Shown: positions 29,135 through 62,749 of the stretch, piece by piece | Numbering within the stretch: the first letter of the stretch is position 1 | How the letters are laid out: each line of letters starts with the position of its first letter | Source: an uncultured cyanobacterium | GTDB taxonomy: Bacteria > Cyanobacteriota > Cyanobacteriia > Cyanobacteriales > Cyanobacteriaceae | Direction of reading: 5' to 3' | NCBI GenBank assembly: GCA_963749915.1 | Contig: CAVVOP010000021.1 | Location: forward strand, 672,001 to 736,000 | DNA length: 64,000 nucleotides | Notes under the pieces: generated by a model | Told to the model about the DNA's origin: nothing | The model's database searches: none | What the model saw: only the letters and a program-made list of their open reading frames with translations | Translations under genes and position numbers: made by a program

Positions 29135-31027
29135 GTGGTGGGGTCAAATAGCAATCAATCCTTTAATTATCTTACTCATGAAACCATGTTGACTTATTTA
29201 GAGTCTTTCCTCAAGCTATCAGGAAAGGAGCTATCCTTTGTAGATCTCTTAAACCATCGAGTACAGAATCAACCCGACCAAATAGTTTATACCTTTCTTC
29301 ATCGTGGAGAAACAGAAGCGTATAAGCTGACTTACGGGGAATTAGATTTCAAAGCACGAGCCATCGCCGCTCGGCTACAATCTTGTCAAGCTCAAGGGGA
29401 ACGAGCTTTGCTATTATATCCCCCTGGACTGGATTTCATTACCGCTTTTTTGGGCTGTTTGTACGCCTCTGTCATTGCGGTTCCTGCTTATCCCCCTAGA
29501 CCTAACCAAAAATTGACTCGATTACAGGCGATTGTCGCCGATGCACAACCAAAAGTAATTCTTACCACTAGCTCCCTGTTAGATAAGATAGAGCATCGTT
29601 TTAATCTCGATAGTACCATAGCGGTAGATCACTGGTTGGCTACGGACAATCTTAACCATGAGTTGGCATCACATTGGCAGAAACCAGTGATCAGTAGCGA
29701 TAATCTTGCCTTTCTCCAGTACACTTCTGGTTCAACGGGAAACCCTAAAGGTGTAATGGTCAGTCATGGAAATCTGTTGCACAATTCAGAGACAATTTAT
29801 CAGGCCTTTGGGCATACCCCCGAAAGTCGAGGAGTCATTTGGTTGCCACCCTATCATGACATGGGCTTAATTGGCGGTATTCTTCAGCCTCTATATGGAG
29901 GTTTTCCAGTGATCTTTATGTCACCAGTGGACTTTCTACAGAAGCCTTTGCGGTGGCTCAAGGCAATTTCTCACTATCGTGCTACTACCAGTGGCGGACC
30001 AAATTTTGCCTACGATCTTTTGATTCGCAAAGTGACTCCCGAACAGTTGGAGAGCTTGGATCTCAGTAGTTGGGAATTGGCTTTTACTGGGGCTGAACCT
30101 GTCCGTGCTGAGACACTAGAAAAGTTTGCCTGCACTTTTGCACCCTGTGGCTTCCGTAAAGAAGCATTTTTCCCTTGCTATGGAATGGCAGAAACGACTT
30201 TAATAGTTAGTGGAGGATTGAAATCGGCTACTCCTGTCATTGAGCAAGTAGAAAAAATAGCTCTTGAACAAAAGCAAATAATAGTAACCAAAGACGAAGA
30301 AGATTCTCGCAAAATTGTCGGTTGCGGTCAGAGCCTCCCAGGTCTAAATATAGTGATTGTTGATCCCCAATCTTCGACCTTAGTTCCCCATAACCAAGTA
30401 GGAGAAATTTGGATATCTGGTTCTAGTGTCACTCGGGGCTACTGGAACAAATCGGAGGAGACCCAGGAATCTTTTCATGGTTATTTAGCCGATACTAGAG
30501 AGGGTCCGTTTCTGCGTACGGGGGATTTGGGTTGCTTACAAAATGGGGAGTTATTCATCACCGGACGAATCAAAGATACAATTATCATTGGCGGTCAAAA
30601 TTATTATCCCCAGGATATTGAACTAACAGTTGAGAACAGCCATCCGGCTCTGCGTCCGAATTGTGGAGCGGCGTTTGCTGTAGACATAAAAGGTTCAGAA
30701 AGACTCGTGATCGTTCACGAAGTCAAACGTAGCTACCTGCGAAAGTTAGACGTTAAAGAGGTAGTTGACAATATCCGTCAGGCTATCACCGCAGAATACA
30801 ATTTGCGAATCTATGCCACAGTTTTGGTCAAAACTGGGAGTATCCCTAAAACATCGAGTGGCAAAATTCAGCGTCATGCCTGTAAAGCTGGATTTCTTAC
30901 GGCTAGTTTGAATGTAGTGGGAGACTGGAGCGAAAATCCCCGCCACAAAACCTCTTTTTTGCATCTTCAAGCTGAAGTTGAATCTATCTTAAAAAAGCTT
31001 GAGATGGTCCAACAATCACCCAAGTAA
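29135..31027 (+). CDS. Fatty acyl-AMP ligase (FAAL)
   Basis: AFLQYTSGSTGNPKG, WLPPYHDMGLIG, CYGMAETTL, LRTGDLG, PKTSSGKIQR; start may be ATG 29186. Confidence 0.93.
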   Translation: MVGSNSNQSFNYLTHETMLTYLESFLKLSGKELSFVDLLNHRVQNQPDQIVYTFLHRGETEAYKLTYGELDFKARAIAARLQSCQAQGERALLLYPPGLDFITAFLGCLYASVIAVPAYPPRPNQKLTRLQAIVADAQPKVILTTSSLLDKIEHRFNLDSTIAVDHWLATDNLNHELASHWQKPVISSDNLAFLQYTSGSTGNPKGVMVSHGNLLHNSETIYQAFGHTPESRGVIWLPPYHDMGLIGGILQPLYGGFPVIFMSPVDFLQKPLRWLKAISHYRATTSGGPNFAYDLLIRKVTPEQLESLDLSSWELAFTGAEPVRAETLEKFACTFAPCGFRKEAFFPCYGMAETTLIVSGGLKSATPVIEQVEKIALEQKQIIVTKDEEDSRKIVGCGQSLPGLNIVIVDPQSSTLVPHNQVGEIWISGSSVTRGYWNKSEETQESFHGYLADTREGPFLRTGDLGCLQNGELFITGRIKDTIIIGGQNYYPQDIELTVENSHPALRPNCGAAFAVDIKGSERLVIVHEVKRSYLRKLDVKEVVDNIRQAITAEYNLRIYATVLVKTGSIPKTSSGKIQRHACKAGFLTASLNVVGDWSENPRHKTSFLHLQAEVESILKKLEMVQQSPK

Positions 31028-31116
31028 ATACAAACAATAAAAGCAGTTTAGCAAAACTGTCAATATTTTTTGGTTCTAAGCCATTATTAACCATTAACTT
31101 AAATCAAGGAGTAACT

Positions 31117-31386
31117 ATGAACCTTCAGACTCTTACTGTAAAAGACAAAGAGATATCTGCTACAGAGATTCAAGATTGGATCGTCACCTATTTAGGAGAA
31201 TTACTGGAAGTAGATCCCGACGACATTGATGTCACCATTCCTTTCGATCGCTACGGTTTGGATTCTTCAGCCGCAGTCGGTTTGACGGGCGACTTGGAAG
31301 ACTGGCTAGGCAAAGAGATAGATCCGACTCTACTCTACGATTACCCAACCGTTGAGGCTTTGGTTCAACATTTAAGTCAGCATTAA
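31117..31386 (+). CDS. Acyl carrier protein
   Basis: FDRYGLDSS, LYDYPTV. Confidence 0.92.
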   Translation: MNLQTLTVKDKEISATEIQDWIVTYLGELLEVDPDDIDVTIPFDRYGLDSSAAVGLTGDLEDWLGKEIDPTLLYDYPTVEALVQHLSQH

Positions 31387-31473
31387 GCTGTCTATCATCA
31401 AATTCTCACAAAATCAATACCCTAGATGAGGTTAATAATTCTCAATTTACGATGACACTTACAGGAGAACTTT

Positions 31474-32835
31474 ATGACGGTTACCATTAAACCATCTACG
31501 ATAAAACAACAATTTTCCACTTACAGTGAGAGAAAAACTAACAAACATCTCAAACTGATTGAAACCACTTATCGCAGTAATACATCTTCCGACTACACTG
31601 AAAAAATTGAGGAGTTGACCAATAACTTCAACTACAACAGTAATAGTGGTAGTTATTGGAGTGAGCCTAGGCAGTCAATGCTATATGGTAGTCCACTCTA
31701 CGAAGTGGCCTCTCCCTCACAGAAGTTAGCCCTCAATCACCTTCACTGGTTTGCCAACTATAACTATATCTCTAATTCCGAAGCGGAAACCGTTATTTTC
31801 AACCAGATCACATCTAGCGTTTTTGAAGCGATCGGCGGTTACCAAACTCTCTCTAAGGAGTTAGCCATGGAAACAGAACAAGAATATTGCCACATCAAAG
31901 CTTTTCGCAAAATAGGTTTAATGACGGCAAAGGCTCTTATAGGCAAGGAAGGACTTAATAAACTCCTCAAATGGAACTCCTACAAATTAGTTTTAGGACA
32001 AGATTCTTTACCTACCTATAAGTATTATGCCTTGCGCTCTATAGCAACAACGATGCTTAGTAAAAACAAACAACAATATTCCAGTTATTTACGGGAGTTA
32101 GAAGCGAAAAATCATTTCATTATCAAAGCACCTACTACGGGAATGCTAGGGCGATCTTTAAAATATTCCCTGCCCTTGCAAAGTTTTTTCAGCTTCAACT
32201 GGGGAGCAGGGTCGCCTTTCATGGCTTGCCAATTCTACGCAATACGTATCATAGCTAACTTGTATCTCAAAAATATGGAGCATTCCATCGCTAAGTATTT
32301 TCAGAAGTTGGAGAAGAAGGAGGAGTTTATCCCGGCTCCCACAGCGGTCTCTCGCTACCATTTTTTGGATGAATCTTTCCACACCACCATATCTCAATTA
32401 CTGGCGAAAGATATGTATAAACATTTCCCTAAGCCAACAGCATATGAGAAATTTGTAGCTAACATGGTAATTTACATGATGCAAAGTGGCACTTTAGGCG
32501 GGCTTTCTGGTGTGTTACCTCATCGTTATTTTGCCGATGACTACTCGATTATGGAGCTAATTTACCAGCTACTACAAGCCCCTTTATTTGGCATGTCCGC
32601 CCAGGAAGCACTTCACTGGCTAAATCAGTGCTTATGTTATGAACATGAAGGTTTTCATGGGGCACTGGAGAATCGCCAACGCCTTTTATCAGAAATGTGC
32701 CGATTCTTTGAAGATATTGATTATCTCTGGCCCATCAACCGAGAAATGCGTTTAATGGCCGCACGAGGTTCAATCAGCGAAGCCATCGGCAACAATATCA
32801 GGACCTTTGAGCATTTTTCTCGCTCGGTAACTTAA
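31474..32835 (+). CDS. CylC-type dimetal-carboxylate halogenase (AurF-like)
   Basis: EQEYCH and YHFLDESFH ExxH motifs; position between FAAL-ACP and PKS. Confidence 0.8.
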   Translation: MTVTIKPSTIKQQFSTYSERKTNKHLKLIETTYRSNTSSDYTEKIEELTNNFNYNSNSGSYWSEPRQSMLYGSPLYEVASPSQKLALNHLHWFANYNYISNSEAETVIFNQITSSVFEAIGGYQTLSKELAMETEQEYCHIKAFRKIGLMTAKALIGKEGLNKLLKWNSYKLVLGQDSLPTYKYYALRSIATTMLSKNKQQYSSYLRELEAKNHFIIKAPTTGMLGRSLKYSLPLQSFFSFNWGAGSPFMACQFYAIRIIANLYLKNMEHSIAKYFQKLEKKEEFIPAPTAVSRYHFLDESFHTTISQLLAKDMYKHFPKPTAYEKFVANMVIYMMQSGTLGGLSGVLPHRYFADDYSIMELIYQLLQAPLFGMSAQEALHWLNQCLCYEHEGFHGALENRQRLLSEMCRFFEDIDYLWPINREMRLMAARGSISEAIGNNIRTFEHFSRSVT

Positions 32836-32908: not shown

Positions 32909-35395
32909 TTGAATTTATTAAATATGGAACCCATAGCAATTGTTGGCATTGGTTGCCGTTTCCCTAAAGCAAAGAATCCCGAAGCCTTCTGGCAATTATT
33001 AAGAAATGGTGTAGATGCGATCACCGAGGTACCGTCAGAGCGGTGGGATATTGACAGATTTTATGAGCCTCAGCCAGCTACCCTAGGAAAAATGAATACT
33101 CGCTGGGGATGCTTTTTGGAACATGTAGATCAATTTGACCCTGGCTTTTTTGGTATTTCCACCCCTGAAGCAGAACACATGGATCCCCAGCAAAGATTGA
33201 TGTTGGAGGTAGCCTGGGAAGCTTTAGAAAACGCCGGAATAATACCAGAAACGCTGGGGGGTACCCAGACTGGGGTATTCGTTGGCATCACCAATGCTGA
33301 TTACAATAAACTTATCTACAAAGATGCTTACCAAGTCGGGGCATACAGTCCCACGGGGACCACCCAGTGCATTGCCGCTAATCGTCTGTCCTACTTGCTG
33401 AATCTGCGAGGACCCAGTATGGCCATCGATACGGCTTGTTCGTCGTCATTATTGTCAGTTCATTTGGCGTGTCAGAGTTTGAGGAGCTTAGAGTCGTGTT
33501 TATGCCTGGTCGGGGGAGTCAATCTGGTGCTGATTCCCGAACCAACTGTAAGTTGTTCCCAAGCTCAAATGCTGTCCTCTGAGGGTCGCTGTAAGATTTT
33601 TGATGCCAGTGCCAATGGCTATGTTCGGGGAGAGGGCTGTGGCGTAATTATCCTCAAGCGTCTATCTGATGCTGTTCAAGACGGAGATAATATCCTTGCC
33701 CTCATCAGGGGTACAGCAGTTAACCACAATGGGTTGAGCAACAGTCTGAGCGCACCCAATGGACTCGCTCAACAGTCTGTAATTCGCCAAGCTTTAGAAA
33801 ATGGAAACGTCAAACCCCCAGAGATTAGCTATGTTGATGCTCACGCTGTCGGTAGTGGGCTCGGAGACGCCATCGAGTTTAAAGCCCTTAAAGCAGTTCT
33901 CATGGAAGGTCGCGAGCCAGATCAACCCTGTAGGATAGGCTCGGTCAAAACCAATATCGGTCATTTAGAATCTGCTGCTGGGATTGCTGCTTTGATTAAA
34001 GTAGTCCTCTCGTTGCAACACGAAGAAATTCCTCCGCACCTACATCTTGAAGAGCTTAATCCTTATATTTCTCTGGAAGATACCCCATTTTCCATTCCTA
34101 CCAAGTTACAGCCATGGTCTCGTGGAGAAAAGAGTCGTTTCGCTGGGGTAAGTGCTTTTAGTTTTGGTGGCACTAATGCTCACATTATTTTAGAGGAAGC
34201 ACCCCGTTCAGTAAACACTCATCAGTTAGAAGTAAACAGTAATAAAGAAACCGAGCGTCCACTCCATCTATTAACCCTATCAGCTAAAACAGAAAATGCC
34301 TTATTAGAATTAGTTGGTAATTATCAAAACTATTTGGCAACTCATCCGCAATTAAAGCTTGCAGATATTTGCTTTACTGCTAATACTAAACGCACACATT
34401 TTAACCACCGCCTCTGTATAGTTGCTGAATCCATCGCCCAGTTACGGGAAAAGTTAAAGCCTATTATCGCTCAAGAAACAACTGCTAGAGTATTCAGGGG
34501 TAAAGTAAAGGGCAGAAAACGCCCTAAAATTGCTTTCTTCTTCCCCGAGAATGAATCGGCATCTCTGAGTATGGGGTATCAACTATATCAAACTCAGCCG
34601 ACATTTCGTCAAGCTTTCGATCGCTGTGCTGATTTTCTGCAACCCTACTTAGAAAAACCTCTCTTAGAAGAACTAGGAAAGAATTCTCAATCCCAAATCG
34701 ACCAACCTGCCTTATTTGCCCTGGAATATGCCCTTGCCCAACTGTGGTATTCCTGGGGTATTAAACCCAAAGCAGTTATGGGTTGTGGAATCGGAGAATA
34801 CGTTGCGGCTACCGTAGCTGGGGTATTTAGTCTAGAAGAAGCCCTTAAATTGATTGCCGAAAGAACTCGTCTAAAGCAAGCAAACTGTTCGCTGGAAGAA
34901 ACCCTCTCTGCTTTTGCACCAATAGCCGAACAAGTAAGCTACTCTCAACCAAAGATTGGCTTTATTTCCACTTCCAGTGGAGAATTGACAACAAAATCAA
35001 TAGCGACTCCCGAGTATTGGTGTCTTCATTTACAACAGTCGGAAATCTCTGCTGGTGGTATAGAAGCTTTAGCCGACTATCAAGTGGTTTTGACCATGGG
35101 TTCACAGGCGACTTCTTTATGCCAAGAAGTGGGAACTCACCTATTTAGCTTAGGTCAAGGACGAGATGATTGGCTAGAAATGCTTTCTAGTTTAGGAGAA
35201 TTATTTGTTCGCGGGATAGCCATAGACTGGTGTAGTTTTGACCGAGATTATCCCCGTCGTCGTCTCCAACTACCGACTTATCCATTTCAGCGACAGCGAT
35301 ACTGGTTTAAATCTACTGATAATGAGCAGCAATTATTGCCTCACCACAAAGATCTAGACTCTGACTTCGAAAAAGTTTTGGCCCTCTCATCTTAA
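32909..35395 (+). CDS. Type I PKS module, KS plus degenerate AT
   Basis: DTACSSS, DAHAVGS, GHLESAAG; AT motif GCGIG lacks the catalytic Ser; likely start ATG 32924. Confidence 0.9.
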   Translation: MNLLNMEPIAIVGIGCRFPKAKNPEAFWQLLRNGVDAITEVPSERWDIDRFYEPQPATLGKMNTRWGCFLEHVDQFDPGFFGISTPEAEHMDPQQRLMLEVAWEALENAGIIPETLGGTQTGVFVGITNADYNKLIYKDAYQVGAYSPTGTTQCIAANRLSYLLNLRGPSMAIDTACSSSLLSVHLACQSLRSLESCLCLVGGVNLVLIPEPTVSCSQAQMLSSEGRCKIFDASANGYVRGEGCGVIILKRLSDAVQDGDNILALIRGTAVNHNGLSNSLSAPNGLAQQSVIRQALENGNVKPPEISYVDAHAVGSGLGDAIEFKALKAVLMEGREPDQPCRIGSVKTNIGHLESAAGIAALIKVVLSLQHEEIPPHLHLEELNPYISLEDTPFSIPTKLQPWSRGEKSRFAGVSAFSFGGTNAHIILEEAPRSVNTHQLEVNSNKETERPLHLLTLSAKTENALLELVGNYQNYLATHPQLKLADICFTANTKRTHFNHRLCIVAESIAQLREKLKPIIAQETTARVFRGKVKGRKRPKIAFFFPENESASLSMGYQLYQTQPTFRQAFDRCADFLQPYLEKPLLEELGKNSQSQIDQPALFALEYALAQLWYSWGIKPKAVMGCGIGEYVAATVAGVFSLEEALKLIAERTRLKQANCSLEETLSAFAPIAEQVSYSQPKIGFISTSSGELTTKSIATPEYWCLHLQQSEISAGGIEALADYQVVLTMGSQATSLCQEVGTHLFSLGQGRDDWLEMLSSLGELFVRGIAIDWCSFDRDYPRRRLQLPTYPFQRQRYWFKSTDNEQQLLPHHKDLDSDFEKVLALSS

Positions 35396-35446: not shown

Positions 35447-35761
35447 ATGAAAGAAAAGATTTTAGAAGCCCCACAGCATCCGAGTACTCCATCGATGAGT
35501 GCAGAAGATATTCAAGATTGGTTGGCATCTCAAATTGCTGAACAGTTAGGAGTCGACCCCGATGAGATTGATATTCGAGTACCTTTCGATAGCTACAGCT
35601 TAGACTCTGTGCAGATCATGGCCATTGCGAGCCTAGGAAAACAATATTTAGGTCTGCAACTCTCTCCCCTGGTTATCTGGAATTATCCCAATATTGACTC
35701 TCTGTCTCACCACTTGGCTCAAGAATTACAAGCTTCGGAAATAGAGGTTTTAGAACTATGA
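35447..35761 (+). CDS. Acyl carrier protein
   Basis: FDSYSLDSV, IWNYPNI; acidic C-terminal docking-like tail. Confidence 0.88.
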   Translation: MKEKILEAPQHPSTPSMSAEDIQDWLASQIAEQLGVDPDEIDIRVPFDSYSLDSVQIMAIASLGKQYLGLQLSPLVIWNYPNIDSLSHHLAQELQASEIEVLEL

Positions 35762-37668
35762 AAACTATCCATGTATCAGAACTTTTGACAAATCTTAGTC
35801 AACAAGGGGTTCAGTTGTGGAGTGATCATGACAAATTAAAAATCAATGCTCCCAAGGGAACTTTAACCCCACAAATTCAGGCAGATCTAACCGCACGCAA
35901 AACAGAAATTCTCACTTTTTTGCGTGAAAGTAATGATTCTGGTTGCCAAACTTCTACTGGACTAAGTTTACAGACAATTGGTCGTTTAATTGGTGGATCT
36001 TGTCCTAGTTCTCCCATAGAGTTCAAATCACCCATTGTCGATCCCAAAGTAATGGCAAAACACCTCAAAGTTACCTTGAGACCATTGCCAAAAGGATTTG
36101 AGAATCAAGCTATTCTGAAGCTTGGCCAAGAATTAGAACTCAAGCTGCGAAACTACGGCGTGCAAATTATTTCTTGGGAAAAAGCAACCAGGGACTTTGC
36201 TTATGGAATTCCTATTCCCTTAACTAAATGGAAAAAAACGATTAAAACCAGAGTAGTTAAACCTGAAATTAGTGCGGTAATAGATGTTAGCAGACCGAGC
36301 AATAAAATTAAAAGTTTTATTGCCGAAAAATTCTATCAAATTTATTCTCAATTTTTCTTGAGAAATCAAAAAAAATCCCTTGCGACAATTACCAAGTTGA
36401 TTGCCTGGGCTGAAGATCATACAATGCAACGTCTCGAAGATCCTACCGCTACTCAAGTAATTATGTTGACACAGCTCGATCGAGATTTTGTTGACTCAAA
36501 AGTCCCCTATGAAAGGAAAATTGCTATTGGTGTAAATACTTTAGTAAAAAGCTTTGCTGAAATTGTGATCGGGGTATCTGAGAGCAAGATTTCTATCTTA
36601 AATATGAATCTTGCCGATTCTCTTTTTCCGAGAGAAAAGTTTGATGATTTCGTTTTGAAATCCTTAATTCCGAAAATTTACGTACCGATCGCACCTTTGC
36701 CCCTCAATCGCTTTGCCATAAGTAAATACAATCCCAAACAATCACTTTATGCAACTAAATTACAACAATTGAGTCAAGAATTGGCAAATACGGGACTTTT
36801 TCCTTCCGGCTTCAAACTCGGTGAGATAATTAAACGGCAATCCCATCGAGACATTGTTGATTCAATTGTCAATGGTAGAACAGGTGTTTCTTACGGTTTT
36901 GTTGCTTATGCCGAGCCACCACAGTATATTGGCGATCGCCAAATCACAGAAAGTCAGTGGCAAAGTCTCTCATCCGTAGAGGGATTTAGTAGCAAGGAAG
37001 TCCGTCAAAATGCCATGGGCAGACGGTATCTCAAAACCAAGATCAAGGATCGATACGCCTACAAACAAATTCCCGATATCTGGCTAGTATGTTCCCGTTC
37101 CGGTGCCAATAAGACAGATTTAAAGCTAGAGGGTGACATTCTTAGGATAGGTATGAAAAATAATTTATACCTTGAGATAGCAGAAGGTATCGATCCGACA
37201 CAAGTAGATGTCAAGCCTTCTTACGATACTTACGTGATGGTAGCGATCGCCCTCTCAGCAGCTCTGTATGCACCTGAATTAATAGAGAATGGTGCACCAA
37301 TGATTCATTTTCACGGCTATCCAGCCAAAGACTGGTTTGAGTCAAAGGAATTTTGGGCTGGAGTTGAGCATCCCTCTGTCCCCTGTGGAACTTATGAATC
37401 GGGAGTATTCAATTTTCTCAGTATTTATAATTTGGTCAACCAAAAGGACACCCCTATTGCCTTAGCCAGTCTAATCGAACCGGATCACGGCACGAATATT
37501 ATCACCAGCGATTCGGAGTATTTACTAGCAAGATTAGCAAGGGGAATCCAACAGCAACAAATCGAATTAGGTGGCAAGCATTTTGCTTCCCTTAGCGAAA
37601 GACCCTTAGCCGTGGCAAATCCGCAAGGATACACCGCCATTTGCCCTGACAAAAGTTTGAACATGTAA
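35758..37668 (+). CDS. TubC-N docking domain fused to unknown / class II aldolase-like domain
   Basis: ELLTNLSQQGVQLWSDHDKLKINAPKGTLT..RKTEILTFL; SRSGANK, KPSYD, HFHG, PDHG. Confidence 0.65.
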   Translation: MKTIHVSELLTNLSQQGVQLWSDHDKLKINAPKGTLTPQIQADLTARKTEILTFLRESNDSGCQTSTGLSLQTIGRLIGGSCPSSPIEFKSPIVDPKVMAKHLKVTLRPLPKGFENQAILKLGQELELKLRNYGVQIISWEKATRDFAYGIPIPLTKWKKTIKTRVVKPEISAVIDVSRPSNKIKSFIAEKFYQIYSQFFLRNQKKSLATITKLIAWAEDHTMQRLEDPTATQVIMLTQLDRDFVDSKVPYERKIAIGVNTLVKSFAEIVIGVSESKISILNMNLADSLFPREKFDDFVLKSLIPKIYVPIAPLPLNRFAISKYNPKQSLYATKLQQLSQELANTGLFPSGFKLGEIIKRQSHRDIVDSIVNGRTGVSYGFVAYAEPPQYIGDRQITESQWQSLSSVEGFSSKEVRQNAMGRRYLKTKIKDRYAYKQIPDIWLVCSRSGANKTDLKLEGDILRIGMKNNLYLEIAEGIDPTQVDVKPSYDTYVMVAIALSAALYAPELIENGAPMIHFHGYPAKDWFESKEFWAGVEHPSVPCGTYESGVFNFLSIYNLVNQKDTPIALASLIEPDHGTNIITSDSEYLLARLARGIQQQQIELGGKHFASLSERPLAVANPQGYTAICPDKSLNM

Positions 37669-39785: not shown

Positions 39786-39867
39786 AAAACGATGAGGCTT
39801 CACAGATCGCTGTGCGATCGCAACTATTACCAATTTTCGAGAAAACAATTTTGATGGAGAATTGAAC

Positions 39868-46677: not shown

Positions 46678-46729
46678 GGGCTAATACAATACTGCTCGGT
46701 TAGTTCCAAAAAGATTACTGTGAGGGAAA

Positions 46730-46776
46730 AGTAATAAGTAATAAGTAATAAGTAATAAGTAATAAGTAATAAGTAA
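46730..46776. repeat. Heptamer short tandem repeat (agtaata)x6
   Basis: Direct reading; STRR-like. Confidence 0.9.
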
Positions 46777-46813
46777 GTAGTATAAAAATCAGGCGTCCAT
46801 CGGGAATGAAAAC

Positions 46814-48166: not shown

Positions 48167-49732
48167 ATGAAATCAATTCAAAAAAAACAAATCGAGAACC
48201 AAAAAACAATAACGCAGACCAAACAAAATCGTTTCAAAGTGCTCACGCTATCGGCGATGTGTTTGACACTTTTCATGACTAATCTCAATGATACGGTTAT
48301 GAATGTGGCACTTCCCCAAATTCAAATAATTTTGGGTTCTAATGTGTCGGGATTACAATGGATTCTCAACGCCTACACCCTAACGGCAGCTAGTCTCATG
48401 CTGCCAAGTGGAACCTTGGGAGATATTTATGGACGCAAGCGAGTTTTTCTGATGGGACTGGTAATTTTTACCATTGCTTCTCTAGCCTGCGGACTCGCTC
48501 CCAATTTGGCCACTTTGATTGTCGGACGAATGCTCCAAGGAATAGGTGCTGCTGCCTTAATCCCAACTTCTCTGGCCATCCTCACCGATACTTTCCCCGA
48601 ACCGACGGAGAAAACTAAAGCGATTGGTGTTTGGTCTGCGGTGTCAGGAATTGCTCTGGTTCTAGGTCCGGTGTTTGGTGGAGTCCTGGTAGATAATTTG
48701 GGATGGCAGAGCGTGTTCTTTCTTAATCTACCCCTAGGTGCGCTCGCTTTTTGGGTGAGTTGTCGTTTTGTTGGGAAAGGTAGACATCCCAGTCAGCAAA
48801 GTATAGATTTACTAGGTATCTTGCTGAGTGTCGGCTTACTAGCTTCGGTTACCTATGTTCTGACGGAGGGAAATACGTCGGTTGGGCGATCGCTCTGGCT
48901 ATTAGCAATTGCTATCTTTAGTTTGCTAGCATTTCTGTTGGTTGAGTCCCACAGTCGTCACCCGATGTTGCCCCTCAAGCTGTTCCAAAAACCAGCATTT
49001 GCTGTAGTTAATCTGGTCAATATTCTGGTATTTTTTACTTTCCTGAGCTTAATCTTCATTTTTAGTCTTTTCCTGCAGCAAGTACAGGGATATTCAGCTA
49101 CGGCAGCAGGAATGCGCTTTTTGCCCCTGAATGGAGCCTTTGTGAGCGCCTTGCTCGTTTCTGGATGGTTTGCAGCTCGGCTCGGCTGGCGTTTTACGAT
49201 CGCAGCAGGATTGATGCTGGCGAGCGTAGCGACCTTTTCTTTTATCCGCATCGGTGCCAATACCGAGTATGGAGTAATGTGGGCGGGGCTGGTTCTCTCA
49301 GGTTTTGGCGGTGGATTGACTCTGGCACCCTTAGCAACGGTAGCTTTAAGTTCTGTACTCCCAACTCAAGTGGGAATTGCTTCCGCCTTACTCAACGTCA
49401 CCACCCGTTTCGGTGGTGTTTTGGGAATTGCCCTCCAGGGCAAGATTCTTTCTCAAAGGCTCACCTTAGACTTGACCAGATCTCTCTCTGATTGGAACTT
49501 GCCCTCTACCTTGCAAGAGCGATTAATCGCCGCTGCTTTGCATGGCGGTTCCAAAGTTCCCAATGCCCTTCCCCTGAGCATTTCTCCCTCAGTTTGGCAT
49601 CAAGCCTTTAGTCAAGCATTTGTGTCGGGGTTACATGCTGCTATTTTAATCGCCAGTGTTGTTCTCTTAGTTGGAGCATTTTTAATTCTGGTGTTTGTAC
49701 CACCGATGCTGAAGGAGCGATCCCAGGTTTGA
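48167..49732 (+). CDS. DHA2 family MFS efflux transporter
   Basis: NVALPQI, WILNAYTL, GDIYGRKRVF, WQSVFFLNLP. Confidence 0.92.
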   Translation: MKSIQKKQIENQKTITQTKQNRFKVLTLSAMCLTLFMTNLNDTVMNVALPQIQIILGSNVSGLQWILNAYTLTAASLMLPSGTLGDIYGRKRVFLMGLVIFTIASLACGLAPNLATLIVGRMLQGIGAAALIPTSLAILTDTFPEPTEKTKAIGVWSAVSGIALVLGPVFGGVLVDNLGWQSVFFLNLPLGALAFWVSCRFVGKGRHPSQQSIDLLGILLSVGLLASVTYVLTEGNTSVGRSLWLLAIAIFSLLAFLLVESHSRHPMLPLKLFQKPAFAVVNLVNILVFFTFLSLIFIFSLFLQQVQGYSATAAGMRFLPLNGAFVSALLVSGWFAARLGWRFTIAAGLMLASVATFSFIRIGANTEYGVMWAGLVLSGFGGGLTLAPLATVALSSVLPTQVGIASALLNVTTRFGGVLGIALQGKILSQRLTLDLTRSLSDWNLPSTLQERLIAAALHGGSKVPNALPLSISPSVWHQAFSQAFVSGLHAAILIASVVLLVGAFLILVFVPPMLKERSQV

Positions 49733-49930
49733 ATTGAGATCATTGAGTATTGTGGATTAAACTCAGCAATTCTATAAAGTAAAGAGACAAACAAAATTGT
49801 TTGAGAAAAGGAGAAAATGTGACACAAAATACTTGACAAAACTTTCCGGAAGAATTAGTATTTAGTGAGTATTTTCACTTATTCCTCTAAACAACAAATT
49901 AAATATGGTTCCAACAGAAGAACTTTCACG

Positions 49931-50014
49931 AAAAGGAGATTAGAAATCGTGCAGCAAACATCTAATTCTATCCCCTTACCTTCCTTGATTCCGAATCAAA
50001 ATAAATCAAAAACA
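49931..50014. promoter_or_regulatory. Conserved non-coding leader element, copy 2 (upstream of beta-propeller gene)
   Basis: Homologous to 28729-28804; both preceded by acacaaRatacTTGAC (28580, 49822). Confidence 0.6.
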
Positions 50015-50457: not shown

Positions 50458-53367
50458 ATGGAAGAGCAAACTTTAAATGTCTCACTGCTGTCCCCTGTCA
50501 GTGATCTGATTTCGGGGGCAGGCACTGATCTCGATCTCATTTTCGGACGGGCCGGGAATGACGTTTTTTATCCGTTTGATCCGCTGGAAGATACTGATGC
50601 CCTGATCAATATTGACATTCTGTTTGGTGATATCTTTGACAACACACCAGAGGAATTTGAGGTCACGCTTGGCCTTGCAGGGGGCGACCCATTTGCCATC
50701 CTAAATGCGGATATTCCATCGATCGGAGCCGATCGATTTGTCCTAGGAGATGAATTTAGACCATATTATACAAGCTCCAATCCGCTCTCTCTGATAACCA
50801 CCAACTTCCTAGGGTTTAATGATTTTGCCCTCATTTATGATTTTGACCCTAATCAAGATACGATCCAACTTAACGGCGATAAAGATGACTACTTGTTGGT
50901 GAAAATAGATGCTCTCTCAGTTAGTGCGATCGCTGGGGGTGAGGCTGTCCCTGGCGACGTAACTGATTTCTCTGGCTATGCACTCTTTTCCCTGGAGTCT
51001 GGCGTCCCTGATGTGGTCAGTTTAATTGCCCAGAAGCCGGACGTGGAATTAAAGCTGGATGATGACGGGTTCCTATTTGTCGGTGATAAACCCGAGGACG
51101 ATCCTGAGGATAAGAAGATTGGCCAGTTTGGCACCACTGGCCTCGATTACGGCTATGCCGTGGCCACTGACACCTATGGCAACCTGTATGTTGCTGGCAC
51201 GACCAGCGGTTCTCTGAATGGCCCCAACCAAGGATCCTCTGATGTTTGGGTTACCAAATATAACTCCAGCGGCAATCAGGTTTTTGCCAAGCAGTTCGGG
51301 TCTGCGGCTGGAGAATCCGTCACCGAAATTATCACCGATAAGGATGGTAATTTCTATCTGGCGGGAAGTACCACCGGCAGCTTTGTTGACACCTTAAAGT
51401 CCACCAGAGGCTCAGATGCTTGGGTGGCTAAATATAGCAGCAACGGCACGATGCTGTGGGGGCGTCAGTTTGGCAGTAGTGCTGCTCAGACGCTGCCGGG
51501 AGATGAGTTTGGCTTCTCCACCAGTGCCTTTGGTTTGCAACTCGATGCCAATGGCGACGTCTATCTGTCTGGACTCACCATCAATGATAACTGGAAAGGA
51601 ATCCTAGACTTTCCGGTCGAGGATGATTCCTGGGTGATCAAGCTGGATGGTGCAACGGGTAACAATGAGTGGACCACCAGCACCAAAATTACGCCGCCGC
51701 CCCAAGATGTAGATCCCAACTTCCCCTTCTTAGCAGCCTTTAGTCCCTTCTTTGATGAAAGCTACGATCTCGCCGTTGACTCCCAAGGTAATTCCTACCT
51801 GGTGGGATGGTCCCAAGGTCTGACCACCATCTCCGACCCCAGTCGAGATTTACAAAAATACGATGTCTGGCTAGCTAAAGTGAACACCGCTGGCGAGATT
51901 GAGTGGGTGCGCCAATTTGGCAGTGCCGATCGGGGTTCAGAATTTGGTTGGGCTGTGGATACTGATGGCCAAGATAATGTCTACGTCTCCGGATGGACAA
52001 ATGGTAACCTAGGAGAACTGAGTGAGGATTTTAAGAAGGCGGCCGCGCGGGACATCTTCCTTGCCAAGTTCACCCCAGACGGTGAGATGGACTTTACCAA
52101 GCAATTTGGCTCTCCGGGCGATGATGGACAGTATTTCTCTGACATGTTCATTGATGCCTCTGACAATATTTTCTTGACGGGGTATACCGATGGTAAGTTG
52201 GGTGACGGCGACGACGACAAAAGCATCAATGCTTGGATCGGCCGCTTTGATACTGCTGGGAACAACCAATGGATTCAACAACTTGGCATCAAGGATAAAG
52301 CTGACTATGCTACCGGCGTGACCGTCAATAGTGGTGGTCAGCTGTTCGTAACTGGATTCACAGAAGGCCTATTGGGCACTAGCAGCAGTGGCAACGCGGG
52401 TTCTGCTGTCGATGCCTGGCTGGCTGAGCTCGATATCGAGAAAGGAAAACTGCAAGAATTTGAAGGGACTTCCGGAAATGTCATCAGCATCGCCGATCCT
52501 GGTGCGATCGCTGTAAGTGATGTAACTGCTCAGTTTCTAGTGGGGGATGACCTGCCTACTGGGACCAAAAATATTCCTAACCCTGGGGCCTATTACGGTG
52601 AGATTCTGGATGGCATGTCTCCCTTCTTTGACCCCAACTCCGCAAATTCCCTCCAGTCGTCCTTGATCGACGCCATGATGAATGATCCCAGTGTCTTTGG
52701 GGGCACCATGCCCAGCCTGAAGCTGGAGGGCTCTGATGGGGTCAATGATGTGCTCATGGGCTTTATGGGCGATGACGAGCTCAAAGGCAAGAAGGGGGAT
52801 GATGAACTCCATGGTCTTGCTGGTGATGACAAGCTGGAGGGCGAAGACGGCAACGATACACTTTTTGGCGGTGCCGGTGAAGATGAAGTCAAAGGTGGTA
52901 AAGACAACGATGAACTTCATGGCGATGCCGATGCTGACAAACTTAAAGGTGATGATGGTGATGACCTGCTCATCGGTGGTGCTGGTAACGATGAACTAGA
53001 GGGTGAAGATGACAACGATACGCTGATTGGTGTGAATCCGGACGCCGCTAAGGCTGGGTTTGGTGAATACGACAAATTAAAAGGCGGTAACGAAGCTGAT
53101 CTCTTTGTTCTTGGGGGGGCTAACCAAGCATACTATGTCGGTCAGGGTAATCTTGATTTCGCCCTAATCGATGACTTCAAGCTAGATCAAGGAGATATGA
53201 TTCAGCTTTACAGCAGTGCTAGCTACAGCCTGGGAGAAAATATATCTGGTCTGGAAAAGGGAACAGCTATCTTCTTTGAAGGCAATGACCTGATTGCTAT
53301 CGTCAAGGATGTCAAAGACCTCAGTCTCACTGATACCAGTGTCTTCTCCTTTGTATTAAGCGAGTAA
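50458..53367 (+). CDS. CylK/BrtB-like SBBP beta-propeller protein with RTX Ca-binding repeats
   Basis: N-terminal GRAGND/DILFGD/GADRFVLGD; repeated vatD..GN.Y..G.T..DaW..K blades; C-terminal GGxGxD-like nonapeptides. Confidence 0.75.
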   Translation: MEEQTLNVSLLSPVSDLISGAGTDLDLIFGRAGNDVFYPFDPLEDTDALINIDILFGDIFDNTPEEFEVTLGLAGGDPFAILNADIPSIGADRFVLGDEFRPYYTSSNPLSLITTNFLGFNDFALIYDFDPNQDTIQLNGDKDDYLLVKIDALSVSAIAGGEAVPGDVTDFSGYALFSLESGVPDVVSLIAQKPDVELKLDDDGFLFVGDKPEDDPEDKKIGQFGTTGLDYGYAVATDTYGNLYVAGTTSGSLNGPNQGSSDVWVTKYNSSGNQVFAKQFGSAAGESVTEIITDKDGNFYLAGSTTGSFVDTLKSTRGSDAWVAKYSSNGTMLWGRQFGSSAAQTLPGDEFGFSTSAFGLQLDANGDVYLSGLTINDNWKGILDFPVEDDSWVIKLDGATGNNEWTTSTKITPPPQDVDPNFPFLAAFSPFFDESYDLAVDSQGNSYLVGWSQGLTTISDPSRDLQKYDVWLAKVNTAGEIEWVRQFGSADRGSEFGWAVDTDGQDNVYVSGWTNGNLGELSEDFKKAAARDIFLAKFTPDGEMDFTKQFGSPGDDGQYFSDMFIDASDNIFLTGYTDGKLGDGDDDKSINAWIGRFDTAGNNQWIQQLGIKDKADYATGVTVNSGGQLFVTGFTEGLLGTSSSGNAGSAVDAWLAELDIEKGKLQEFEGTSGNVISIADPGAIAVSDVTAQFLVGDDLPTGTKNIPNPGAYYGEILDGMSPFFDPNSANSLQSSLIDAMMNDPSVFGGTMPSLKLEGSDGVNDVLMGFMGDDELKGKKGDDELHGLAGDDKLEGEDGNDTLFGGAGEDEVKGGKDNDELHGDADADKLKGDDGDDLLIGGAGNDELEGEDDNDTLIGVNPDAAKAGFGEYDKLKGGNEADLFVLGGANQAYYVGQGNLDFALIDDFKLDQGDMIQLYSSASYSLGENISGLEKGTAIFFEGNDLIAIVKDVKDLSLTDTSVFSFVLSE

Positions 53368-53371
53368 TTAT

Positions 53372-53547: not shown

Positions 53548-54861
53548 ATGGTTAGAAAAATAGATGTCAATGATACCCCATTCTTAAAGCCAGGAATTCC
53601 CTGGATTGTTGTCTTATCAATAGTGGGACTCCTGAGTATCGGGGCTAATATTGTCTATGGCCTTAGATCCACTCAGCCCCCCTCAACCTTATCAATTACC
53701 GCCTCGGAAAAGATTCCTGAAATTAAATCGGTTACGGCTCTAGGACGGCTGGAACCCCAAGGAAAAACGATCCAATTAGCACCTCCGCCAAACTTGGGGG
53801 GTGCTAAGGTCGTTGAATTGCTAGTGAAAGAGGGAGATCTCGTTAAGGCCAACCAGGTAGTGGCTATCCTCGAAAATCGAGATTTGCTCCAAGCTGCTGT
53901 GGAACAAACACAACAGGATGTTAAAGTAGCTCAAGCGAATCTGGCCATTGTCAAAGCTGGAGCTAAATCAGGGGAAATTCAGTCCCAAAATGCCACCATT
54001 AAAAGATTAGAAGCTCAGTTACAAGGAGAAAGTATCAGCTATCAAGCTAAAATCCTTCGTCTTCAAGAGAAATTACAAGGGGAAAAGGGGACTCAACAAG
54101 CAACCATTGATCGTTTGCAAGCAGAACTTCGTAATGCACAAAGTGAGTATCAACGTTATCAGCAACTTGCTGAAAATGGGGCTATCTCGGCCTCGGATTT
54201 GGATCGTCGTTCTCTGATCCTAGAAACAGCGCAAGAGAAACTAAAAGAAGCACAAGCTACTTTTAATCAAACCATTGCGACTCTAGAGCAAGATATCCGA
54301 GAGGCAAAAGCTAATGCCCAACAAGCCAAAGATACCGTATCTCAACAAATTCAAGAAGAAACAGCGGAACTCCATCGCATTACTGAGGTGCGGGATGTGG
54401 ATGTCTACAAAGCTCAAGCCGAAGTTGAAAGGGCGAAAGCTTCCCGACAAAAAGCTCGAGAAGAATTGGAATTAACCTATGTTAAAGCTCCCATAACCAG
54501 TCGCGTCCTCAAAATCTATACTTACCCTGGAGAGAGAGTGCCATCAGAGCAGAGTATTTTAGAGTTAGGCAATACAGACCAGATGATGGTAATTGCTGAA
54601 GTTTATGAAACTGATGTTGCTCAAGTAAAACCAGGACAAACTGTTAAGATTAAAAGCGAAAATGGAGCTTTTCCTGGTGAATTAGAAGGAACTGTAAGTG
54701 AGGTGGGTTGGCTCATTAACCAACAAGGAATTTTTGAAATCGATCCATCTTCAGATGTAGATAATAGAGTAGTTGAAGTTAAGATCAAATTAAATGAAGA
54801 AGAACGGGACAAATTCACCCGATTAACCTATTCACAGGTCATCGTCAAAATTTTTCTTTAA
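53548..54861 (+). CDS. devB: DevB family ABC exporter membrane fusion protein
   Basis: VTALGRLEPQG, VIAEVYETD, DVDNRVVEVKI. Confidence 0.92.
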   Translation: MVRKIDVNDTPFLKPGIPWIVVLSIVGLLSIGANIVYGLRSTQPPSTLSITASEKIPEIKSVTALGRLEPQGKTIQLAPPPNLGGAKVVELLVKEGDLVKANQVVAILENRDLLQAAVEQTQQDVKVAQANLAIVKAGAKSGEIQSQNATIKRLEAQLQGESISYQAKILRLQEKLQGEKGTQQATIDRLQAELRNAQSEYQRYQQLAENGAISASDLDRRSLILETAQEKLKEAQATFNQTIATLEQDIREAKANAQQAKDTVSQQIQEETAELHRITEVRDVDVYKAQAEVERAKASRQKAREELELTYVKAPITSRVLKIYTYPGERVPSEQSILELGNTDQMMVIAEVYETDVAQVKPGQTVKIKSENGAFPGELEGTVSEVGWLINQQGIFEIDPSSDVDNRVVEVKIKLNEEERDKFTRLTYSQVIVKIFL

Positions 54862-54872
54862 TTAACTCAAGG

Positions 54873-56039
54873 TTGAAATCTCTACTTATGATAAAAACTT
54901 CTTTAGCTTGGTTACAATTAAACCACCAAAAAACTCGCCTCTTAATCGCATTAGCAGGAGTCGGTTTTGCTGATATGCTGATGTTTATTCAGCTTGGGTT
55001 TCAAGCTGCACTTTTTGAAAGTAATGTCAGATTTCACAAAAGTTTTCGAGGAGATCTTTTTTTAATTAGTCCTGACTCTCGTTCTACTATATCGATGGAA
55101 GCTTTTTCTCGCACGCGGATCTATCAATCCCTAGCTATTGAGGGGGTTCAATCAACTACTACGGTCTATATGGATTTTGCTTCTTGGAAAAATCCCGTTA
55201 ATCGCAGTACCCGTACTTTACTTATTGTTGGCTTAAATCCTGATAGTAATCCTCTGAATTTACCAGGTTTATCAAAAACAATTGCTTCGATTAAACACAG
55301 AGATGTTTATTTATTTGATGCCCTATCTAGGGAAGAATTTGGACCTGTTCCCTCCTTACTTGAGGAGAAAAAGAGTGTTACAGCAGAAATAAACGATCAT
55401 CGCGTTAAAATTGGAGGATTATTTGCTTTAGGAGCTTCTTTTGCCGCTGATGGAAATCTCATCACTAGTGATATTAATTTTCATCGTCTTTTGCCTGACA
55501 GAGATCGAAGTTTGATTGATGTTGGGGTTATTCACTTAAATGAGAATGCTGATTTACAGTTAGTTCAAAAAGCTTTAACAGAGAAACTCCCACCAGATGT
55601 TAGAATTTTATCTAAGGAAGAGTTTATTGAGTGGGAGAAACACTATTGGAAAACTAGTACTGCGATTGGATTTATCTTTTCCATGGGAACCGGAATTGGT
55701 TTTATGGTTGGAGTTTTAATTGTTTATCAAATTCTCTATACTGATATCTCAGATCGCCTACCCGAATATGCAACTTTAAAAGCAATTGGTTATAAAAATC
55801 GTTACTTTATTTTGGTTGTTTTTCAAGAAGCAATTATCTTAGCAATATTAGGTTATATTCCAGGTATTTCAATAACAATGATACTGTACTCATTGGCAGC
55901 AGGTGCTACAAATTTACCGATTATTATGACTATAACTAGGGCTATTACTGTTTTAACCTTAACTATTATAATGTGTTCTGTGTCTGGACTAATTGCAATT
56001 CGTAGACTTAATGCTGCCGATCCATCTGACCTTTATTAA
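54873..56039 (+). CDS. devC: DevC family ABC exporter permease
   Basis: LAWLQL..LMFIQLGF, LGASFAADG, YQILYTDI..EYATLKAIGY; start may be ATG 54888. Confidence 0.93.
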   Translation: MKSLLMIKTSLAWLQLNHQKTRLLIALAGVGFADMLMFIQLGFQAALFESNVRFHKSFRGDLFLISPDSRSTISMEAFSRTRIYQSLAIEGVQSTTTVYMDFASWKNPVNRSTRTLLIVGLNPDSNPLNLPGLSKTIASIKHRDVYLFDALSREEFGPVPSLLEEKKSVTAEINDHRVKIGGLFALGASFAADGNLITSDINFHRLLPDRDRSLIDVGVIHLNENADLQLVQKALTEKLPPDVRILSKEEFIEWEKHYWKTSTAIGFIFSMGTGIGFMVGVLIVYQILYTDISDRLPEYATLKAIGYKNRYFILVVFQEAIILAILGYIPGISITMILYSLAAGATNLPIIMTITRAITVLTLTIIMCSVSGLIAIRRLNAADPSDLY

Positions 56040-62743: not shown

Positions 62744-62749
62744 TCCAAA

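Follow-up and report, generated by a model that had tools for sequence, protein, structure and literature searches.

A nostochloroside-type gene cluster of an uncultured cyanobacterium with a predicted extension-free route to a chlorinated sugar-lipid

What product is assembled by a cyanobacterial gene cluster that combines the enzyme pair of cryptic halogenation with several glycosyltransferases, and whose proteins give zero Pfam or NCBIfam matches to a type III polyketide synthase (PKS), a DarB-type enzyme, an NRPS or a thioesterase? The question is raised by a locus within the window, the 64,000-nucleotide stretch of an uncultured member of the Cyanobacteriaceae analysed here (GCA_963749915.1, contig CAVVOP010000021.1, positions 672,001 to 736,000), to whose first letter all coordinates refer.

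Layout and kinship of the cluster

The 19 co-oriented genes of the original prediction are real: all 19 ORFs lie on the + strand (29135..56039) with intact reading frames and intergenic gaps of -4 to 180 nt, except for 725 nt 5' of the propeller gene. The labels first given were borne out for most genes by Pfam and NCBIfam matches (FAAL, ACP, KS with AT, a second ACP, TubC_N, two SDRs, three MGDG-synthase/GT28 proteins, GMC, Glf, methyltransferase, MFS, SBBP with RTX, DevB and DevC; Glf (TIGR00031), DevB and DevC all exceed the family cut-offs), and three with no or partial family match, the diiron enzyme, the aldolase-like part and the kinase, were tested separately. The arrangement is not due to chance, as its order is kept in other genera. 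The absences noted at the outset had also been predicted; in addition, a presumed type III PKS from another genome (G463) used as query found no match across the genome at E 1e-8, and Pfam and motif searches found no condensation domain or HHxxxDG in the cluster. The cylindrocyclophane (cyl) and bartoloside (brt) clusters share with this locus the CylC/CylK-type pair for cryptic halogenation but, since type III PKS and DarAB are lacking here, no resorcinol is expected. Orphan CylC/CylK clusters are already known to be common, and the cluster type is in itself unsurprising.

Its gene content marks the cluster as a variant within the nostochloroside (ngl) type and not as a new kind. The ngl (pks3) cluster of Nostoc punctiforme ATCC 29133 (PMC10849952) has the same order, FAAL-ACP-CylC-PKS-NglG-SDR...GMC...MT-CylK(RTX)-DevB-DevC, and a PKS without TE domain. 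In the ngl-type reference locus (G557 L098-L099), whose gene content and residue numbering agree with those published, 11 of the 19 genes have same-order counterparts with 35-66% identity, and the ngl-type core (FAAL-ACP-halogenase-PKS-NglG-SDR plus a CylK homologue, no resorcinol synthase) is present here. The three PKS proteins of ngl contrast with one KS-AT0 protein and a free ACP; the elongating modules NglD (KS-AT-KR-ACP) and NglE (KS-AT-DH-ER-KR-ACP) are absent, no KR, DH or ER is found, and the NglD KR, NglE, NglI, NglK, NglM and NglR have no counterpart. The gulose set (NglI FAD oxidase, NglK epimerase, NglM group-1 glycosyltransferase) has no match inside the cluster, nor does NglI in the whole genome at E 1e-8. 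Conversely, three GT28 proteins, Glf, a second SDR, a kinase-like protein and an MFS protein are additional to ngl. Without the two elongating modules and the gulose genes, nostochlorosides cannot be made here. The original prediction of a different product thus holds, for neither a cyl, brt or cly compound nor a nostochloroside is expected, but it understated the kinship to ngl. No characterised cluster matches gene for gene.

Closer still in gene order are four orphan clusters, in Aliterella atlantica CENA595 (L016), Nostoc sp. B(2019) (L018), Nostoc sp. MG11 (L019) and Komarekiella atlantica HA4396-MV6 (L020), in which 16 of the first 17 genes recur in unchanged order (~45-93% identity) and for which no product was found in the literature searched. 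They differ in lacking the kinase-like gene, at whose place Aliterella has a fatty-acid hydroxylase, and in an extra ORF after the FAAL gene in three of the four, which encodes a desaturase in both that were scanned. The comparison loci were chosen by NglG or halogenase matches and many are closely related, so that the counts given below are not independent; one stretch (G486) covers chiefly the wrong side of its halogenase.

We consider it fairly likely that the cluster encodes an ngl-type pathway that dispenses with polyketide extension, every chemical step of which we infer from gene content, folds, catalytic residues and conservation. Its product is probably a chlorinated sugar-lipid different from the nostochlorosides and so far unisolated. 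It would likely be a chloro-alkane-1,2-diol, built from a fatty acid plus one carbon, that is glycosylated, O-methylated and then O-alkylated by chloride displacement.

Loading, chlorination and transfer of the acyl chain

The pathway would begin with the loading of a fatty acid onto ACP1 by the NglA-like fatty acyl-AMP ligase (29135..31027, +), which matches the AMP-binding and FAAL models and is 63% identical to the ngl-type FAAL; its start is probably near the ATG at 29186, as homologue alignments begin at residues 18-24. ACP1 (31117..31386, +), NglB-like with 64% identity to the ngl-type ACP and with a DSS serine motif, is the predicted carrier for halogenation. The latter would be carried out on the acyl chain by the CylC-type diiron halogenase (31474..32835, +), as CylC-family halogenases chlorinate acyl-ACPs. 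The family signature, QExxH plus HxxDExxH (PMC12101540), appears as QEYCH at 136 and HFLDESFH at 296, and both motifs are invariant in the 76 aligned homologues. The structural model (pLDDT 92) matches the ferritin-like AurF (Z 17.7, rmsd 3.8, 291 aligned) and CmlI (Z 17.3), which together with the motifs bears out the diiron label; Foldseek alone on this model returned nothing with E below 0.001. The protein is 50% identical to the ngl-type NglC and 51% to the halogenases of the four orphan clusters, and in a tree its subclade differs from those of NglC and of the nearest gene-order relatives, so that chain length and chlorination site are not transferable from ngl. Use of the halogenase tree to place the chlorination site was rejected, being impossible without named reference sequences.

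A departure from ngl is the KS-AT0 protein (32909..35395, +), which is probably a non-elongating shuttle that would hand the unextended chain to ACP2. The claim of an inactive AT held up, as the domain lacks the catalytic Ser, with GCGIG instead of GHSxG, and is shortened by an internal deletion when compared with full ATs. In the KS, Cys177, His312 and His352 are intact and HAVGS replaces HGTGT; HAVG[ST] occurs in all 11 single-PKS clusters versus 0 of 61 other KSs, and the KS of the four orphan clusters has the same HAVG. A comparable shuttle, the KS0-AT0 protein ClyE, has been proposed for the chlorosphaerolactylate (cly/noc) cluster (PMC7923214), where FAAL, ACP and halogenase are likewise followed by a non-elongating KS-AT0 that passes on a chlorinated acyl chain; the acceptor there is ClyF, an NRPS-like protein with TE, in contrast to NglG here, and cly has two halogenases and a core without glycosyltransferases or CylK. 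The recipient ACP2 (35447..35761, +) has an acidic-hydrophobic C-terminal docking tail, corresponds to the ACP at the C-terminus of NglF and is 54% identical to the ACP of the third PKS in the ngl-type locus, versus 39% to the NglB type.

Alternatively, the KS might elongate once, with malonyl placed on ACP2 in trans by the transacylase of fatty-acid synthase. The substrate of NglG would then be a beta-ketoacyl-ACP2, converted for instance through oxidative decarboxylation or condensation, and the lipid would be two or three carbons longer or carry an extra oxygen. The intact Cys-His-His triad is consistent with this, as is the descent of the KS from first-module KSs: it groups with elongating first modules from related clusters and not with the NglF-type KS*. 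Class II aldolase folds also include decarboxylases and dioxygenases (2z7b, 8il8, 9m0a; Z 10-12). We nevertheless regard a single extension as rather unlikely, given the fixation of the HAVG change in single-PKS clusters, the His-to-Gln change of the module preceding NglG in 12 of 12 multi-PKS clusters and the existence of KS-free FAAL-ACP-NglG fusions that retain the full NglG site. A chimeric origin of KS-AT0, from a first-module KS and a last-module AT0, was rejected, as the AT identities fail to separate the two.

Chain release by the NglG homologue

In the favoured extension-free pathway, the C-terminal tail of ACP2 would dock the next protein, which would remove the chain and add one carbon as a ketol. 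The TubC/aldolase-like domain label first given to this protein (35758..37668, +; model pLDDT 83) was correct, and its identity is that of an NglG homologue, with 62% identity to the ngl-type reference; we regard it as the most useful component of the cluster. It comprises a beta-hairpin docking domain (1-59), a CoaB-like Rossmann domain (95-312) and a class II aldolase fold (325-605; Z 13.7, rmsd 2.9, 165 aligned). Of 186 homologues, 184 retain the metal-site residues D490, H517, H519 and H577 together with C543; one full-length homologue, and solely that one, lacks every site residue, and it is fused to a thioesterase. A role as chain-release enzyme adding one carbon is proposed on the grounds that NglG directly follows the docking ACP tail in 44 of 44 loci and that the site-dead homologue bears a TE, although the fusion was seen in one protein only and might also reflect a TE that ordinarily works downstream of NglG. 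The added carbon and the ketol are deduced from the nostochloroside structure, in which a C20 acyl becomes a C21 1,2-diol (PMC10849952); the same paper gives the role of NglG as a hypothesis only. The ketol would then be reduced to the chloro-alkane-1,2-diol by SDR1 (37690..38559, +), an adh_short protein with 66% identity to the NglH type and a probable ketol reductase, whose gene comes after that of NglG in 21 of 23 halogenase clusters.

Further likeness is found to the class II aldolase/epimerase superfamily (FucA, RhaD, AraD, MtnB, POD, TqaM), which shares the fold (Z 10-14) and the His3 plus acid metal site with the C-terminal domain, but at 10-15% identity and without the docking and CoaB-like domains. 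FucA has Phe131 at the position of the invariant Cys of NglG, a correspondence at motif level only, since hhalign of the NglG profile with the single E. coli FucA (probability 0.2) gave no usable alignment; S448, G449 and S488 suit a phosphate pocket, again at motif level. A profile of 38 NglG homologues found no relevant match among PDB sequences, ESM Atlas returned leads for the docking domain only (0.80), and prediction of the NglG-ACP2 complex gave a score of 0.14 (mark 0.32), to which no weight is given on either side.

It is conceivable that the backbone is right but that release and carbon addition are not the work of NglG. The protein would then supply or reshape a sugar phosphate, or act as a scaffold, and the chain would be freed by an SDR working as a thioester reductase or by some enzyme whose gene lies elsewhere. 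Aldolase folds normally act on sugar phosphates, the correspondence with FucA is of the limited kind just described, and NglH is listed as HetN-like in the nostochloroside paper's table (PMC10849952). Such a role for NglG appears improbable in view of its docking domain and the invariably preceding ACP tail, its natural fusion to FAAL-ACP, and several Pfa-type loci and one fusion locus (G267) in which no SDR1-type gene stands beside NglG.

With NglG taken as the release enzyme, we tentatively suggest, as a possibility that we hold in some doubt, that it represents an undescribed chain-release class in which a triose-phosphate enediolate sits in the metal site and the acyl chain on Cys543, with Claisen-type attack and cleavage yielding an acyl-CH2OH ketol. 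If this were true, a single family would produce odd-carbon 1,2-diol lipids in many cyanobacteria, starting from fatty acids, modular PKS products and Pfa/Hgl-type chains, with the present cluster as its simplest halogenase-linked form and with a CylK-type enzyme that uses a nucleophile new to its family. Should NglG have its proposed function, the products of the Pfa/Hgl-type PKS clusters that end in it (20 of the 44 loci examined) would be long-chain diol lipids of a class so far unrecognised. A link between NglG, whose phylogeny is a quick tree, and the 1,2-diol lipids of Thermus and Thermomicrobium would be speculative. Since only small soluble proteins stand between the free fatty acid and NglG, chain release could be reconstituted without giant PKSs. 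The short assembly line is thus a simple place to study the addition of one carbon to a fatty acid, and the natural FAAL-ACP-NglG fusion is a still simpler system.

Sugar tailoring, export and alkylation

Three GT28s, Glf, GMC/SDR2 and a methyltransferase would add and tailor at most three sugars, among them probably galactofuranose and an O-methyl hexose, the sugar identities being read from gene labels. The first MGDG-synthase-like GT28 (38631..39785, +; PF06925) is followed by SDR2 (39862..40701, +), a paralogue of SDR1 (52%) that travels with the GMC gene. The GMC oxidoreductase (40745..42322, +; PF00732/PF05199), only 22% identical to the NglL type, probably oxidises a sugar. The UDP-galactopyranose mutase Glf (42356..43522, +; TIGR00031 450 bits, cut-off 304), the predicted galactofuranose source, is accompanied by a GT28 in all 12 related clusters. 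The NglN orthologue (43572..44489, +; 65% to the NglN type) is a SAM methyltransferase that probably O-methylates a sugar. GT28 proteins 2 (44525..45751, +) and 3 (46814..48049, +) are family matches and 70% identical to each other. The membrane protein between them (45766..46677, +), with ~6 hydrophobic stretches, may add a phosphate. Its kinase label is the weakest of all, as it depends on ESM-Atlas features (0.93 to auto-named dolichol-kinase/CTP-transferase clusters) and on motifs that presumably resemble those of polyprenol kinases; the likeness to dolichol/phytol kinases is a lead only. No Pfam match was obtained even at E 10, and a homologue is present in 1 of 23 related clusters.

Candidate exporters are a DHA2-family MFS protein (48167..49732, +; TIGR00711 above cut-off), a DevB-type membrane fusion protein (53548..54861, +; TIGR02971, 40% to ngl-type) and a DevC-type ABC permease (54873..56039, +; TIGR01185, 47%). 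Membership of devBC in the cluster is less sure: both genes are missing right 3' of the propeller gene in the four orphan clusters, their GC3 is unlike that of the other cluster genes (devC at the 13th percentile of the genome), and no DevA ATPase gene is found in the cluster, a homologue lying at G000:C21:68864.

After export, a CylK-type enzyme would swap the chloride for an oxygen nucleophile, giving ethers, esters or oligomers. The candidate is the propeller protein (50458..53367, +), with a Ca-binding N-domain, a beta-propeller and C-terminal RTX repeats as in ngl, predicted from its residues to be an alkyl-chloride-using enzyme of CylK/NglO type. It matches CylK (7RON) over both domains (phmmer E 7e-84), and R31, E434 and Y468 align with R84, E428 and Y460 of the NglO-type protein of the reference locus; the reference residues of the alkylating family are the equivalents of CylK Arg105, Tyr473 and Asp/Glu440, and the Arg and Tyr are also seen in direct alignment to CylK. 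The nucleophile position is Glu, as in the O-alkylating NglO and BrtB, in contrast to Asp440 of CylK. Identity to the ngl-type protein is only 35%. Halogenase and propeller protein thus both fall inside their families, and the cryptic halogenation logic originally proposed agrees with published residues.

The nostochloroside paper leaves open both the odd-carbon vicinal diol chain end and the oxygen used by NglO (PMC10849952); the cluster bears on both, through the predicted release to an odd-carbon vicinal diol and through the nucleophile choice of an NglO-type enzyme. The mid-chain hydroxyl thought to serve NglO is out of reach of this cluster, and the propeller enzyme therefore needs another nucleophile and should give a different linkage; candidates are the hydroxyl at C2, one on a sugar, a phosphate and a free fatty acid.

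It could also be surmised that a chlorinated end product is stable, or that oxidation occurs instead, the propeller being a surface/RTX protein, or that the cluster is a silent recent import. According to a review, some CylC homologues might catalyse other oxidations. Cluster GC is 42.9% versus 37.5% for the genome, with raised GC3; an IS200-like remnant lies upstream; and full-length NglG is absent from the 6 same-genus and 16 same-family genomes searched. In 5 of 5 same-genus genomes the radical-SAM and RdgB genes that flank the cluster do not lie side by side, so an empty insertion site could not be demonstrated. These readings seem very improbable to us, because all 19 frames are intact, both halogenase motifs and all three CylK residues are kept, and a CylK homologue occurs inside the fetched stretch at 22 of 23 loci with halogenase and NglG, versus 1 of 21 NglG loci without halogenase, where the sole homologue lacks the Arg and Tyr. 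Knockout of nglO leads to accumulation of the chlorinated monomer.

A common leader before the FAAL and propeller genes also argues against these readings. It consists of a hairpin and a 48-nt tail at 28725..28804 (+), ~110 nt past a sigma70-like site (28591-28619) that is no better than shuffle expectation, and recurs at 49935..50014 (+), ~75 nt past another such site (49833-49861). Rfam gave zero matches in the window; a search of 400 other genomes brought no meaningful match to the element (best E 7e-4, short), nor did any turn up in 42 regions upstream of related clusters or in locus L159. Paralogue-based antitermination was rejected, since the genome has a single NusG. The two copies are the only ones in the genome and share 48 nt at 98% identity.

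Gene content and relation to the nostochloroside cluster

The co-oriented run of the original prediction is borne out by 19 intact ORFs on the + strand, from 29135 to 56039, with short intergenic gaps save for 725 nt 5' of the propeller gene. Family scans upheld 16 of the 19 gene labels directly, and the remaining three were checked separately. ORF 31474, labelled a diiron enzyme and halogenase, contains QExxH and HxxDExxH, the defining motifs of CylC-type halogenases (PMC12101540, in the part available), and its model matches AurF (Z 17.7), in agreement with the label; no second CylC homologue was found in the genome at E 1e-10. The TubC/aldolase-like call for ORF 35758, an NglG homologue, agrees with a predicted docking domain and two further domains, one CoaB-like Rossmann (Z 9.8), the other of class II aldolase type (Z 13.7), and that of a CylK/BrtB-type propeller for ORF 50458 with a CylK match at E 7e-84. 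The kinase label of ORF 45766 is tentative and comes from a language-model lead to dolichol-kinase-like proteins.

The available part of PMC10849952 gives the order of the nostochloroside cluster ngl (pks3) as FAAL, ACP, halogenase, three PKSs, NglG, SDR, FAD oxidase, SDR, epimerase, GMC, group-1 GT, MT, NglO, DevB and DevC. We took a locus of a compared genome, G557 (L098-L099), as its stand-in because gene order, propeller residues (Arg84/Glu428/Tyr460) and Gln344 in the third KS are all as published. Eleven of the 19 window genes have same-order counterparts there, with identities of 63% (FAAL), 64% (ACP1), 50% (halogenase), 61% (KS), 54% (ACP2), 62% (NglG), 66% (SDR1), 65% (MT), 35% (propeller), 40% (DevB) and 47% (DevC); the GMC gene reaches 22%, SDR2 duplicates SDR1, and the three GT28, Glf, kinase-like and MFS genes have no match in G557. 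Neither the elongating PKS modules of ngl nor its gulose genes occur in the window cluster. Taken together, the comparison places the cluster in the ngl kind and predicts another product for it. Nearer to it in order than ngl are the orphan clusters of Aliterella atlantica CENA595, Nostoc sp. B(2019), Nostoc sp. MG11 and Komarekiella atlantica, in which 16 of the present cluster's first 17 genes keep their order.

The literature searched, mostly without subscription papers (nostochlorosides/pks3, CylC+CylK clusters, NglG aldolase, heterocyte glycolipid clusters, cly, vicinal-diol glycolipids), describes neither this architecture nor its product nor NglG chemistry, although the supplement drawings of PMC8406957, which names Aliterella in its accessible portion, and the pair list of PMC8916777 may show such clusters. 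Nothing fitting on galactofuranosyl chlorinated glycolipids appeared among the papers listed, and the available portion of PMC11804610, on heterocyte glycolipid clusters, mentions neither TubC, aldolase nor nostochlorosides.

NglG and its proposed role in acyl-chain release

NglG has been proposed as the terminating enzyme, and several hundred homologues adjoin PKSs without release domains (PMC10849952, as far as available); its spread is thus prior knowledge. The addition made here is residue conservation: S448, G449, S488, D490, H517, H519, C543, E574 and H577 are all conserved in 184 of 186 NglG homologues of at least 450 residues, with identity down to ~25%. Of the two that differ, one is a truncated match and the other is P0255, a protein with a docking domain, an NglG domain that has lost every active-site residue, and a fused thioesterase. 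By eye, C543-G-T-x-E lines up with F131-G-T-x-E of E. coli FucA, a motif match that profile comparison of the two proteins did not confirm; Phe131 is named among the FucA binding-site residues in the available part of PMC11274987. This match suggests that NglG may form an acyl-Cys intermediate next to a metal enediolate. The conversion of a C20 acyl chain to a C21 1,2-diol in nostochlorosides (PMC10849952, same portion) is consistent with a net gain of one carbon and subsequent reduction by an SDR. That the release enzyme is something other than NglG appears improbable to us.

Distant NglG homologues occur beyond cyanobacteria, in Pseudomonas huaxiensis and a Woesearchaeota bin; the latter's protein (P0263) is a closer homologue than a distant subfamily of mostly metagenome proteins (P0270-P0308; 490-560 aa), which has the same metal site and cysteine and no docking domain. 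Homologues also lie on large plasmids (NZ_CP117772.1 of Nostoc sp. UHCC 0926, NC_014533.1 of Gloeothece verrucosa PCC 7822), by which the gene may have spread.

Up to 40 kb was fetched around 30 NglG matches and around 30 halogenase matches, the latter picked from 171 positive genomes among 360; full-length NglG is present in 44 of the 60 loci. In a quick maximum-likelihood tree, these 44 and the window form three groups, in step with the machinery encoded upstream. The first (SH-aLRT 100) comprises the window and the other single-PKS halogenase clusters, 11 in all; the second (SH-aLRT 96) has 12 multi-PKS halogenase clusters, the ngl-type among them; the third (SH-aLRT 98) unites 20 Pfa/Hgl-type clusters with the G488 locus. 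The G211 sequence is separate on a long branch. In all 44 loci the gene 5' of NglG encodes a C-terminal ACP whose tail is acidic-hydrophobic; we take this tail to form a SLiM/beta-hairpin docking pair with the NglG docking domain, and fold matches of the latter to docking domains of this type are in line with that label. Since the loci are kin and selected by match, counts describe rather than test: a CylK homologue in 22/23 halogenase loci (the exception, G466, being a short contig) versus 1/21 others, Glf in 12/23, always together with GT28, and the kinase-like gene in 1/23.

Pfa/Hgl-type clusters (L032-L033, L060-L061, L068-L069, L076-L079 and others) end PfaD-(PapA-type acyltransferase)-ACP-NglG-(NAD epimerase-type reductase); devBC frequently accompanies them. 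NglG is present in all eight genomes of genus g93 that were searched. The G488 locus (L132-L133, G488:C1) encodes KAS III-like, CylK-like and CylC-like proteins, a flavin halogenase, ACP, NglG, two PapA-type acyltransferases and GT2s, thus two halogenase types, with no FAAL adjoining the halogenase.

The AT of the KS-AT0 protein lacks the catalytic serine and part of the small subdomain. Its KS retains Cys177, His312 and His352 and reads HAVGS; HAVG[ST] is found in 11/11 single-PKS clusters versus 0/61 other KS domains, and the papers listed on HGTGT variants showed nothing specific to HAVG. The module 5' of NglG carries His-to-Gln in 12/12 multi-PKS clusters. The intact triad and the grouping of the window KS with first modules, apart from these NglF-type His-to-Gln KS domains, favour one trans-AT extension by the KS, the grouping being the main argument for residual elongation. 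We nonetheless regard such an extension as unlikely: two fusions, P0241 and P0242, join FAAL, ACP and NglG without any KS, so that NglG can evidently meet plain acyl-ACP. For ClyE, a non-elongating KS0-AT0 shuttle has been proposed (PMC7923214; PMC10088813, in the parts available).

The fusion locus (L162:14806-18660, - strand, G267:C51) has no docking domain, and a sulfotransferase gene comes after it. It is the most compact of the natural NglG systems, and its product may be a sulfated diol or ketol.

Proposed pathway and the alkylating nucleophile

We propose, as the probable course, that a fatty acid would become chloro-acyl-ACP1, pass to ACP2 through the KS, be converted by NglG to a ketol longer by one carbon and be reduced by SDR1 to a chloro 1,2-diol. 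Up to three sugars would be attached, with galactofuranose and O-methylation likely and redox tailoring by GMC/SDR2 and phosphorylation possible, before export and displacement of chloride. It is very improbable that the halogen is not cryptic or that the cluster is silent.

Residues R31, E434 and Y468 of the window propeller enzyme align with NglO-type R84, E428 and Y460, equivalent to Arg105, Asp440 and Tyr473 of CylK (PMC10849952, PMC8916777, in part). With Glu at the Asp440 position it resembles the O-alkylating NglO and BrtB, and like NglO it carries an RTX region at its C-terminus. For NglO, the available text favours the O6 hydroxyl, derived from the NglD ketoreductase, as nucleophile and leaves O2 possible (PMC10849952). 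The window cluster has no ketoreductase module, and from its gene content the enzyme would have to use a different oxygen from O6. The value of the cluster lies mostly in making NglG and the alkylating nucleophile testable.

Regulation, origin and surroundings

A leader element of ~68 nt precedes the FAAL gene (28725-28804) and the propeller gene (49935-50014), downstream of sigma70-like sites; the copies are 94% identical and both can form a hairpin, with differing stems and the same loop. No further copies were found in the rest of the genome, relatives or Rfam. The element may be a shared regulatory leader.

The cluster looks imported from elsewhere. Its GC of 42.9%, a level reached by 21 of 795 overlapping 27-kb windows, exceeds the 37.5% of the whole genome, and GC3 of 16/19 genes lies at the 78th-97th percentile, being lower in the kinase-like gene, devB and devC. 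No full-length NglG turned up in the 6 same-genus and 16 same-family genomes searched; within the order it occurs in 42 of the 401 genomes, the window's own among them.

Directly upstream, at 28200-28462, lies a fragment similar to an IS200/IS605 TnpA transposase. A heptamer tandem repeat separates the kinase-like gene from GT3 (46729-46782); short repeats of this kind are common in cyanobacteria. Elsewhere in the same genome are two more FAAL-ACP loci, of which one includes a PKS, as well as another devBC pair (G000:C22:589214-593890, C3:6846-10782, C19:146964-149557). At 57080-63370 a heavy-metal module unrelated to the cluster encodes a cupredoxin-domain protein, a CopA-type P-ATPase and small membrane proteins, and at 15596-19635 a run of seven ORFs of like size (121-160 aa, several of 134 aa) lies on the + strand.
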